Shown one piece after another: positions 1,807 to 2,295 of a stretch of 23,577 nucleotides of DNA. The notes below the pieces were generated by a model. The model did not search any database and was not told the origin of the DNA. It was given only the letters and a program-made list of their open reading frames with translations. The DNA comes from a virus. Lineage: Duplodnaviria; Heunggongvirae; Uroviricota; Caudoviricetes. Each line of letters starts with the position of its first letter. Within the stretch, counting starts at the first letter, position 1. Both the position numbers and the translations under genes were made by a program. The stretch is taken from the IMG/VR virus record IMGVR_UViG_2684622582_000006, positions 1-23,577 of that record. One strand, given 5' to 3'.

Positions 1807-1980
1807 ATACGGGATCTACAGTAAGGAAAGCACTCTATCCAACAAACCACCCAAAGTTAATCGGAATTAAAGCAGAGTGCTTTTGAACACTCATCTTTGC
1901 AGAAAAGACGAGCATTCAAAACTTAAACGTCTTTCAGTCACTCCGGGCTTTCCCATCATCGCAGACTGAAAGACTTTAAC

Positions 1981-2055
1981 TGGAGCGGGCAGCGGGAATC
2001 GAACCCGCATCATCAGCTTGGAAGGCTGAGGTAATAGCCATTATACGATGCCCGC
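1981..2055 (-). tRNA. glyT: tRNA-Gly (anticodon UCC)
   Basis: Reverse complement GCGGGCATCGTATAATGGCTATTACCTCAGCCTTCCAAGCTGATGATGCGGGTTCGATTCCCGCTGCCCGCTCCA folds as a cloverleaf with 7-bp acceptor, anticodon loop CTTCCAA and encoded CCA; as far as I can recall it is identical to E. coli glyT. Confidence 0.85.
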
Positions 2056-2058
2056 ATA

Positions 2059-2134
2059 TGGTGCCGGCTACCGGAATCGAACTGGTGACCTGATGATTAC
2101 AAATCATCTGCTCTACCTGCTGAGCTAAGCCGGC
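2059..2134 (-). tRNA. tRNA-Thr (anticodon UGU), phage-type
   Basis: Reverse complement GCCGGCTTAGCTCAGCAGGTAGAGCAGATGATTTGTAATCATCAGGTCACCAGTTCGATTCCGGTAGCCGGCACCA: acceptor GCCGGCT/AGCCGGC, anticodon stem GATGA/TCATC, loop TTTGTAA, T-loop TTCGATT, CCA encoded; one mismatch in T-stem. Confidence 0.8.
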
Positions 2135-2136
2135 GC

Positions 2137-2219
2137 TGGACCGCCACCGAGGACTCGAACCCCGCACCATACAACAACATCTGGTGTTGTTTGCTCTATC
2201 CCGATGAGCTAGTGACGGT
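2137..2219 (-). tRNA. tRNA-like element with non-canonical anticodon arm (possible pseudo-tRNA or unusual tRNA)
   Basis: Reverse complement has acceptor CCGTCAC/GTGGCGG, D-arm GCTC..GAGC, T-loop GTTCGAGTC and 3' TCCA, but 2 nt between D and anticodon stems, anticodon loop ACCAGAT (C at position 33, anticodon CAG if read canonically) and a 9-nt variable region. Confidence 0.4.
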
Positions 2220-2295
2220 TGGTGGCCCTTGCTGGACTTGAACCAGCGACCTGGCGATTATGAGTCGCTCGCTCTCACCACTGAGCTAAAGGGCC
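2220..2295 (-). tRNA. tRNA with CAU anticodon (Ile2/ileX-ileZ-like, or Met)
   Basis: Reverse complement GGCCCTTTAGCTCAGTGGTGAGAGCGAGCGACTCATAATCGCCAGGTCGCTGGTTCAAGTCCAGCAAGGGCCACCA; anticodon loop CTCATAA; resembles the ileZ-type tRNA of lambdoid/Stx prophages. Confidence 0.8.

Follow-up and report, generated by a model that had tools for sequence, protein, structure and literature searches.

A tRNA-shaped element with a remodeled anticodon arm in the tRNA array of a lambdoid prophage: a probable pseudo-tRNA of the argN family

Why would a tightly packed array of transfer RNA (tRNA) genes carry, among its ordinary members, an element that has the body of a tRNA and no canonical anticodon arm? 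The question is raised by a 23,577-nucleotide (nt) stretch of DNA (IMG/VR record IMGVR_UViG_2684622582_000006, positions 1 to 23,577; hereafter, the window), in which the array occupies part of the minus-strand late region of a Rac-like lambdoid prophage. Prophage tRNA arrays are commonly interpreted as an aid to codon usage and, lately, as a countermeasure to tRNA-cleaving defenses. The second position (slot 2) of this array, which is of a type very common in Escherichia coli prophages, is unlike its neighbors: the body is kept, and the arm has been repeatedly remodeled into nondecoding forms. On balance, we favor the view that the slot-2 element of the window is a nondecoding, tRNA-shaped relic (a pseudo-tRNA) of an argN-family gene, probably still excised in the manner of a tRNA. 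The original prediction, made from the letters of the window, had offered a pseudo-tRNA, a decoy for anticodon nucleases, and a specialized suppressor as options; the first now appears to be the most likely reading, and neither of the others finds support.

The cluster itself is real. ARAGORN finds four genes between positions 2295 and 1981 on the minus strand, as had been proposed without a strand being given. Three of them match the tRNA family RF00005 of Rfam at 65-71 bits; in the same search (551-nt query), the slot-2 element has no tRNA match at the gathering threshold (29 bits) or at E<=10. The element is nonetheless readily recognized by a family covariance model, R1, which we built from 13 canonical slot-2 genes of related arrays: it is matched over its full length at 72.2 bits (E=1.5e-18), where canonical members score 102-106 bits and the ileZ and Gly genes 42-45 bits. 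The check by ARAGORN and Rfam that had been suggested for the element thus yields an odd “Leu(CAG)” call and no RF00005 match, which is not the profile of a normal high-scoring tRNA, and the ARAGORN label “tRNA-Leu(CAG)” should not be taken at face value in annotation.

Where does the element depart from a tRNA? Its body does not. The acceptor stem has 7 bp (CCGUCAC/GUGGCGG, with one U-G pair), the D arm (GCUC/GAGC, loop AUCGGGAUA) retains G18G19, the T arm (CGGGG-UUCGAGU-CCUCG) is intact, and U73 is followed by an encoded CCA. The departures lie in the anticodon arm, AAACAACACCAGAUGUUGUUGUAUGGUG, and the variable region: in the R1 alignment, a single extra base follows position 26, and the variable region holds four more. 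No Arg (UCG/UCU) or Lys (UUU) anticodon can be placed in a 7-nt loop. By ARAGORN and R1, the only 7-nt loop register, ACCAGAU, has C33, separates the D and anticodon stems by two bases, and gives a variable region of 9 nt; the element thereby fails the canonical rules of U33, a single base at position 26, and a variable region of 4-5 or >=10 nt. These are the same three anomalies that the original prediction had described, now reproduced by both programs. Thermodynamic folding and R1 give three mutually exclusive foldings, none of which is a canonical anticodon arm: ACAAC/GUUGU around the loop ACCAGAU with C33, AACAACA/UGUUGUU, a 7-bp stem that closes a 5-nt loop (CCAGA), and CACCA/UGGUG, in which the “loop” is paired with the variable region. 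The competing hairpins from thermodynamic folding have 5- or 8-nt loops. A group I intron or the long variable arm of a class II tRNA was ruled out by the size and positions of the extra bases, and weak Rfam matches with E=0.3-8 (YrlA, C/D-box snoRNAs, and Plastid-ycf2 on the strand opposite to the tRNAs) were set aside as tRNA shaped or due to chance.

Is the odd arm peculiar to this prophage, or does it belong to a family? We scanned IMG/VR with two patterns, one anchored in the slot-2 scaffold and one in ileZ only, and found two architectures. In architecture A, ileZ is followed after 7-9 nt by argN(UCG) and after a further 13 nt by argO(UCU); in architecture B, ileZ is followed after 1 nt by slot 2, after 2 nt by Thr, and after 3 nt by Gly. 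The arrangement of the window, with spacers of 1, 2, and 3 nt, is also found in 36 IMG/VR arrays, and the Prokaryotic Genome Annotation Pipeline (PGAP) annotates the array of E. coli prophages about 90% identical to the region as Ile(CAU)-Lys(UUU)-Thr(UGU)-Gly(UCC). Except in the anticodon arm and variable region, which are 5 nt longer and unalignable, the slot-2 element can be aligned with the Lys gene of these relatives at every base, and it is about 77% identical to argN of Shiga toxin (Stx) phages. The CAU tRNA in slot 1 is 1-2 bases off the copies in relatives, which PGAP names tRNA-Ile, and is identical to K-12 ileX at 69 of 76 positions; on these two grounds, it is an ileZ homologue, and its anticodon is presumably lysidine modified and reads AUA. 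By its sequence, the slot-2 element is in turn an argN homologue in the same slot. The proposal that the array had taken the place of ileZ-argN-argO must therefore be given up.

What the family has in common is the scaffold. In both architectures, the acceptor stem of slot 2 is CCGCCAY/RTGGCGG with a swap of U-A and C-G at pair 7:66, the D arm is TAGCTCATCRGGA.AGAGC, the T arm is CGRGGTTCGAG.CCYCG, and CCA is encoded. The canonical loops are CUUCGAA (Arg-UCG), CUUCUAA (Arg-UCU), and CCUUUAA (Lys-UUU, with C33). Besides these three forms, we find at least 10 noncanonical arms, with loops of 5 nt (UAAAU and UUAAU, and UGAAU in the scaffold-anchored scan only) or 6 nt (CAUAGU, CACGGU, CCAGAU, CUCAAU, and CAUUAA) or with long arms, e.g., AGACGACACGAUAACAGGGUUGUUGGUG. 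In about a quarter of the arrays in the ileZ-anchored sample, slot 2 is uncallable or oddly called by ARAGORN; slot 3 is called wherever it is present, occasionally with a shortened length. Rfam gives canonical slot-2 forms 44-58 bits, and all of the noncanonical forms tested fall below the gathering score. Across 14 arm types, the scaffold diverges by about 10% and the arm by about 33% (47% for shuffled arms), with the caveats that taking one sequence per arm type inflates the divergence of the arm and that gene conversion between coresident prophages could keep scaffolds alike without selection.

The window element differs from other family members at 3-8 of 54 scaffold positions. Some lineages also carry scaffold lesions (a T-loop GGCGGGU, mismatches in the D stem and acceptor, and arm deletions), and since these lesions are independent, slot 2 is clearly prone to decay. 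A homologous aberrant copy is left unannotated in RefSeq, and the record of Yersinia phage YeP1 labels a family member “tRNA-Pseudo-TTG.” It is on these observations, namely, homology, an intact scaffold, loss of the canonical loop, and family-wide variability of the arm, that we base our view of slot 2.

Two side observations on the family deserve mention. The common Lys(UUU) form of slot 2 (locus L001, 3116-3192; locus L002, 3141-3217) has C33, C16, U73, and an A-C mismatch at T-stem pair 51:63; it is a tRNA-Lys in PGAP and is unannotated in the phage records 689R5 and 606R7. There are also hybrid arrays (among the IMG/VR loci L157, L178, and L017) in which a Lys-type slot 2 is followed by argO or a UCU-type slot 2 by Thr-Gly, which places slot 2 at a recombination boundary between the array architectures.

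Codon usage fits this picture of three working tRNAs and one nondecoding neighbor. In the comparison of prophage and host genes that had been recommended, AUA, ACA, and GGA, the codons of the three real tRNAs, are enriched about three times in the prophage relative to 15 K-12 genes, and CUG is depleted (31 versus 58 per 1,000).

Based on the evidence described above, we propose that slot 2 was remodeled in its anticodon arm and kept its acceptor stem, D and T arms, and CCA. In this model, slot 2 would be cotranscribed with the three real tRNAs, both from a promoter-like site in front of the array and as part of the Q-dependent late transcript, and its RNA would fold into a tRNA-like L shape. 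RNase P would then cut its 5′ end, 1 nt past the CCA of ileZ, and would free its 3′ end through a cut at the Thr tRNA, 2 nt farther on. The product would be a tRNA-sized RNA that is neither aminoacylated nor decoding; transcription, processing, and the absence of charging are all what we infer from sequence. The scaffold may have been kept because a packed array needs a clean processing substrate, through recombination with canonical copies, or both.

The search for relatives of the window element also led outside prophages. It is 84.7% identical over 84 nt (query positions 16-99) to a K-12 tRNA-like sequence, an 81-nt element that is found immediately upstream of yahM in nearly every E. coli genome, that is below Rfam tRNA recognition, and that in the K-12 RefSeq record falls inside xtpA (b4845; L147 2835-2915, NC_000913.3 about 345334-345414). 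The differences between the two amount to 5 of 28 positions in the arm and 6 of 54 in the scaffold; they have the same long-arm design, the CCAG loop motif, and a UAUGGUR variable region, and the locus L179 shares CCAGAUGUUGU. To our knowledge, no tRNA-like sequence other than that of xtpA has been described in the E. coli chromosome. The xtpA locus stands alone in the chromosome, has been described as a leaderless mRNA for a 60-residue peptide (61 codons with the stop), reportedly affects GcvB, and owes its place in the K-12 annotation to Muto et al. (J Biochem 2022;171:459). We considered an XtpA-like peptide in the window and rejected it: the equivalent frame reads TVTSSSG*, ending at a TAG in the D loop, where K-12 reads KTAISSSGRADDNQ..., and upstream of the window element stands the ileZ tRNA, not a leaderless start. 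Our literature searches on ileZ/argN arrays and on the tRNA-like sequence at yahM returned nothing useful. As a separate observation, related prophages (L058, 5364-5425 and 5169-5362; also L008, L004, and L054) carry the small RNAs AgvB (anti-GcvB) and STnc100 about 1 kb downstream of the array, which is curious given the effect on GcvB reported for the xtpA locus; neither small RNA was found in the window.

The window variant itself is rare. In its exact form, it has no match among 5,426 complete E. coli genomes, the closest sequence being 84.6% identical; an exact 31-mer of its arm has no match in IMG/VR; a 24-mer scan of GTDB species representatives returned xtpA loci only and no window variant; and an 18-mer metagenome scan gave 96 matches, none in a tRNA-like context and all apparently due to chance. 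The variant is identical in five assemblies, four of which can be compared and differ by 0-18 mismatches over about 6 kb (the fifth is a short contig). The segment matches NCBI assembly GCA_001268365.1 exactly. Among the collections searched, it is thus confined to one near-identical prophage lineage, and its nearest arm relatives are L179 (GGCAAC-CCAGAU-GUUGU-GGUA) and xtpA.

Does everything speak for a nondecoding relic? It does not, and several observations weigh against it. The variant being that of a single lineage, its arm offers no covariation to analyze. The idea of a processing spacer is weakened by arrays that tolerate a badly degraded slot 2 with a gap of about 100 nt, and likewise by the YeP1 family member, which stands first in its array, and by xtpA, which is solitary. 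The long-arm type is common to the window, xtpA, and related prophage forms. Six genomes of five Escherichia species (L127-L134) carry the 81 nt of xtpA with 100% identity, at loci that were fetched by an exact 24-mer inside the element, such that diverged copies would be missed; identity among these genomes falls to 81-93% over the 150 nt upstream and to 55-87% over the 150 nt downstream. Moreover, in E. albertii, E. whittamii, and one divergent E. coli-labeled genome, the XtpA frame is interrupted by a stop at codon 4. Invariance of the element, together with broken frames and diverged flanks, suggests that what is conserved at xtpA is the RNA or DNA element and not the peptide, and it points to a selected function for at least the xtpA copy.

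Could the window element, then, be a functional nondecoding RNA that acts in trans, binding or titrating a tRNA-binding protein or toxin or taking part in regulation, as is reported for the xtpA region, with the odd arm as its functional part? We consider this unlikely, although it draws on much of the same evidence: the scaffold is constrained relative to the arm, the window and xtpA arms are alike (with L179 sharing CCAGAUGUUGU), the xtpA element is invariant in spite of broken frames, and an intact scaffold with an odd arm recurs in a Yersinia phage. Against such a role, arms differ widely across lineages, with loops of 5-11 nt and no motif common to all types, and many family copies bear scaffold lesions too; the sampling of one sequence per type and the possibility of gene conversion also bear on the apparent constraint. 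As to possible partners in trans, cleavage by AriB of the PARIS system depends on U16 and U36AAUCA41 (PMC12409363), and cleavage by P2-OLD depends on A37 and paired CNG motifs at 28-30 and 40-42 (PMC12445682). The slot-2 element has C16, a stem ACAAC/GUUGU without CNG, and no UAAUCA, i.e., none of these determinants, which argues against the proposed decoy, at least for these two nucleases. More broadly, one may speculate that the long-arm elements of the window, xtpA, other prophages, and YeP1 are selected nondecoding tRNA mimics with a role in trans in phage-host conflict or small-RNA regulation and that xtpA is a domesticated slot-2 gene held for its RNA and not its peptide; we regard this as an unlikely conjecture.

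At the other extreme, the element might be an inert pseudogene, damaged not long ago and subject neither to selection nor to proper processing, whose intact scaffold is due to recency or gene conversion. Such an origin would suit a variant limited to one near-identical lineage and missing from the complete E. coli genomes, the IMG/VR scan, and the GTDB species representatives. It would also suit the U4-G69 wobble in the acceptor, where nearly all relatives have C-G, and the (ACA)n and (TGT)n repeats of the arm, which could stem from replication slippage. We nevertheless regard it as rather improbable: the long-arm design is old, being common to a chromosomal xtpA copy found genus-wide, and the element retains all of its four stems, together with G18G19, the UUCGA T-loop, and CCA. 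Finally, a true decoding tRNA, be it a Leu(CAG) in which C33 is atypical or a +1 frameshift suppressor built on the 8-nt loop CCAGAUGU, is very hard to credit, for even though ARAGORN assigns Leu(CAG), the abundant Lys(UUU) relative with its C33 counts as a tRNA in PGAP, and an 8-nt register exists, the element lacks an Rfam tRNA match, has an extra base after position 26 and a variable region of 9 nt, does not appear to fit the textbook identity rules (E. coli leucyl-tRNA synthetase needs A73, where it has U73, and arginyl-tRNA synthetase needs C35, where it has A35), and would read CUG, which is already the best-served host codon and is depleted in the prophage genes. A specialized suppressor finds no support either: the same identity positions do not appear to fit, and no register gives a stop anticodon. 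A pseudo-tRNA that is probably still excised and does not decode is the reading that we retain.

Do the other members of the array speak to the role of such clusters? Lambdoid phages are the textbook target of P2 Old, and the Thr(UGU) gene in slot 3 is of interest in this respect. The phage-type Thr tRNA anticipated by the original prediction is a diverged copy of host thrU, with 68 of 76 positions identical; in the prophage sample, 42 of 61 Thr(UGU) genes are identical to thrU. Six of its eight differences form three compensatory pair swaps, A5G/U68C, A27G/U43C, and C28A/G42U; U16C and C32U make up the remainder. The sites of P2-OLD cleavage in thrU lie after the C of the paired CNG motifs at 28-30 and 40-42 (PMC12445682), and AriB targets Lys(UUU) and Thr(UGU), its cleavage being impaired by U16C (“Mut3”) (PMC12409363). 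The window gene keeps UGU, loses both CNG motifs through C28A/G42U, and has the change U16C, the same as Mut3. Similarly, the Lys(UUU) slot-2 form of relatives has C16 and G39-U40-U41 and is thus without the AriB site. We therefore regard the Thr(UGU) gene as a candidate nuclease-evading replacement tRNA. Its anticodon stem keeps its full length and gains a stronger G-C at pair 27:43; in the P2-OLD study, changing CNG gave protection only in combination with a shortened stem (PMC12445682). For these reasons, resistance is advanced only hypothetically. The gene nonetheless offers a ready candidate for assessing P2-OLD and PARIS resistance in a lambdoid phage. The Gly gene in slot 4 is the exact host glyT copy that had been claimed (75/75 versus K-12).

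The array also has recognizable boundaries (Table 1). A simple promoter scan does not list the promoter-like site, whose -35 hexamer matches at 3 of 6 positions. The layout TTGCRx-17-TATTAT-GC-rich is found upstream of ileZ in nearly all related arrays (L001-L236) of both architectures; sequence farther upstream is unrelated, and in some related arrays, the site comes directly after an intrinsic terminator. This conserved site suggests that the array is its own transcription unit, with the site as its putative promoter. On the other side, the 11-bp inverted repeat noted after the cluster is confirmed, with arms at 1926-1939 and 1964-1977 that are 93% complementary over 14 nt around a perfect 11-bp core. 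In 14 related arrays, 92% of cells in the hairpin are paired, compared to 33-55% with partners slid, and two positions swap on both sides (UA<->CG and CG<->UA); a related GAUGAUGGG..CCC hairpin follows the pseudo-tRNA of YeP1. A kink-turn or box C/D reading of this hairpin was dropped by eye: its CUGA lies within a regular Watson-Crick helix, and there is no fitting tandem G-A. The terminator that had been placed before the holin corresponds to a terminator-like hairpin and T run upstream of an S21-type holin gene.

Table 1. Features of the tRNA array and its surroundings, in minus-strand order (window coordinates)
Feature	Coordinates	Strand	Description and basis
Q-like antiterminator	4046..3384	-	
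Membrane open reading frame	2423..3136	-	237 amino acids, multipass, AT rich (39% GC); between Q and array
Promoter-like site	2305..2333	-	TTGCAG, 17-nt spacer, TATTAT, GC-rich TCTGCGCGC up to first tRNA base; read from sequence
Slot 1, ileZ-type tRNA-Ile2(CAU)	2220..2295	-	ARAGORN; Rfam RF00005, 71.2 bits
Slot 2, aberrant tRNA-like element	2137..2218	-	82 nt; ARAGORN “Leu(CAG)”; Rfam none; model R1, 72.2 bits
Slot 3, tRNA-Thr(UGU), diverged copy of host thrU	2059..2134	-	Rfam, 68.8 bits
Slot 4, tRNA-Gly(UCC), identical to host glyT	1981..2055	-	Rfam, 64.9 bits
Post-array hairpin (inverted repeat I2)	1926..1977	-	11-bp stem (+2 bp), invariant internal loop UGCGAUGAU / GGAGU, inner GGG/CCC stem
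Second, imperfect hairpin (inverted repeat I1)	1881..1921	-	18-nt arms, 83% complementary
Intrinsic-terminator-like site	1785..1806	-	Upstream of holin; hairpin 1806..1791 GCCCGCTGTTGCGGGC, then TTTTTT; terminator scan
S21-type holin	1747..1502	-	Pfam PF04971, E=1.7e-35

On the minus strand, the order in this region is a DUF1367 protein, a YbcO nuclease, the Q-like antiterminator, the membrane open reading frame (ORF), the array, the hairpins, the terminator-like site, the holin, and lysozyme. A Pfam search finds no match for the membrane ORF, and precomputed matches list PF27470 (TfpB); the ORF also matches PHROG 1521 and is rich in AUA, ACA, and GGA codons. The prophage further encodes an NgoMIV-type restriction enzyme and a C5 cytosine methyltransferase (within 5022-7150) and carries the antitoxin RNAs sok (6969-7150) and RalA (21843-22021), and RecE/RecT and an integrase lie at its far end. 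Among ten window ORFs, a PADLOC scan found no tRNA nuclease; its matches were the type II restriction-modification pair and weak helix-turn-helix domain matches (e.g., RmrA) for the repressor-like ORF 14706-15113.

How does the array compare with systems already described? Its closest counterpart is ileZ-argN-argO of Stx and other lambdoid phages, which is found at the same genomic position, flanked by the Q antiterminator and the lysis genes; the window shares with it an ileZ homologue, the argN scaffold (4 of 54 differences), and the promoter-like site. The window differs in that its slot 2 has neither an Arg anticodon nor a canonical loop, in having Thr(UGU) and Gly(UCC) instead of argO, and in its spacers of 1-3 nt as opposed to 7-13 nt. 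Phage tRNAs that evade nucleases (T5 tRNA-Lys/Thr/Asn against PARIS AriB and phage tRNA-Thr(UGU) against P2-OLD; PMC12409363, PMC12445682) resemble the window Thr gene and the Lys form of relatives, which keep their anticodons and are changed at recognition positions. The Thr gene departs from them in its full-length anticodon stem, and the aberrant element departs further, having no matching anticodon and thus being unable to replace a cleaved tRNA. The “tRNA-Pseudo-TTG” of YeP1, an example of the tRNA pseudogenes and “tRNA-OTHER” calls met with in phage arrays, belongs to the same scaffold family, has a noncanonical arm (CGAUAACCAUUGCCGUUGUAGGUG), and adjoins ileZ and Gly(UCC) genes and a hairpin of the kind described above; in contrast, it comes first in its array, in a phage of another host genus, and its arm sequence is different.

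As to xtpA, we consider its homology to slot 2 and its peptide-independent invariance to be the most interesting by-products of this analysis. Both sequences are long-armed, carry CCAG in the loop and UAUGGUR in the variable region, and escape Rfam; one reportedly belongs to a solitary, leaderless chromosomal mRNA, whereas the other sits within a tRNA array with its frame stopped in the D loop. The slot-2 homology suggests a prophage origin for xtpA. Given the invariance of the chromosomal copy, could the RNA rather than the XtpA peptide be the selected product?

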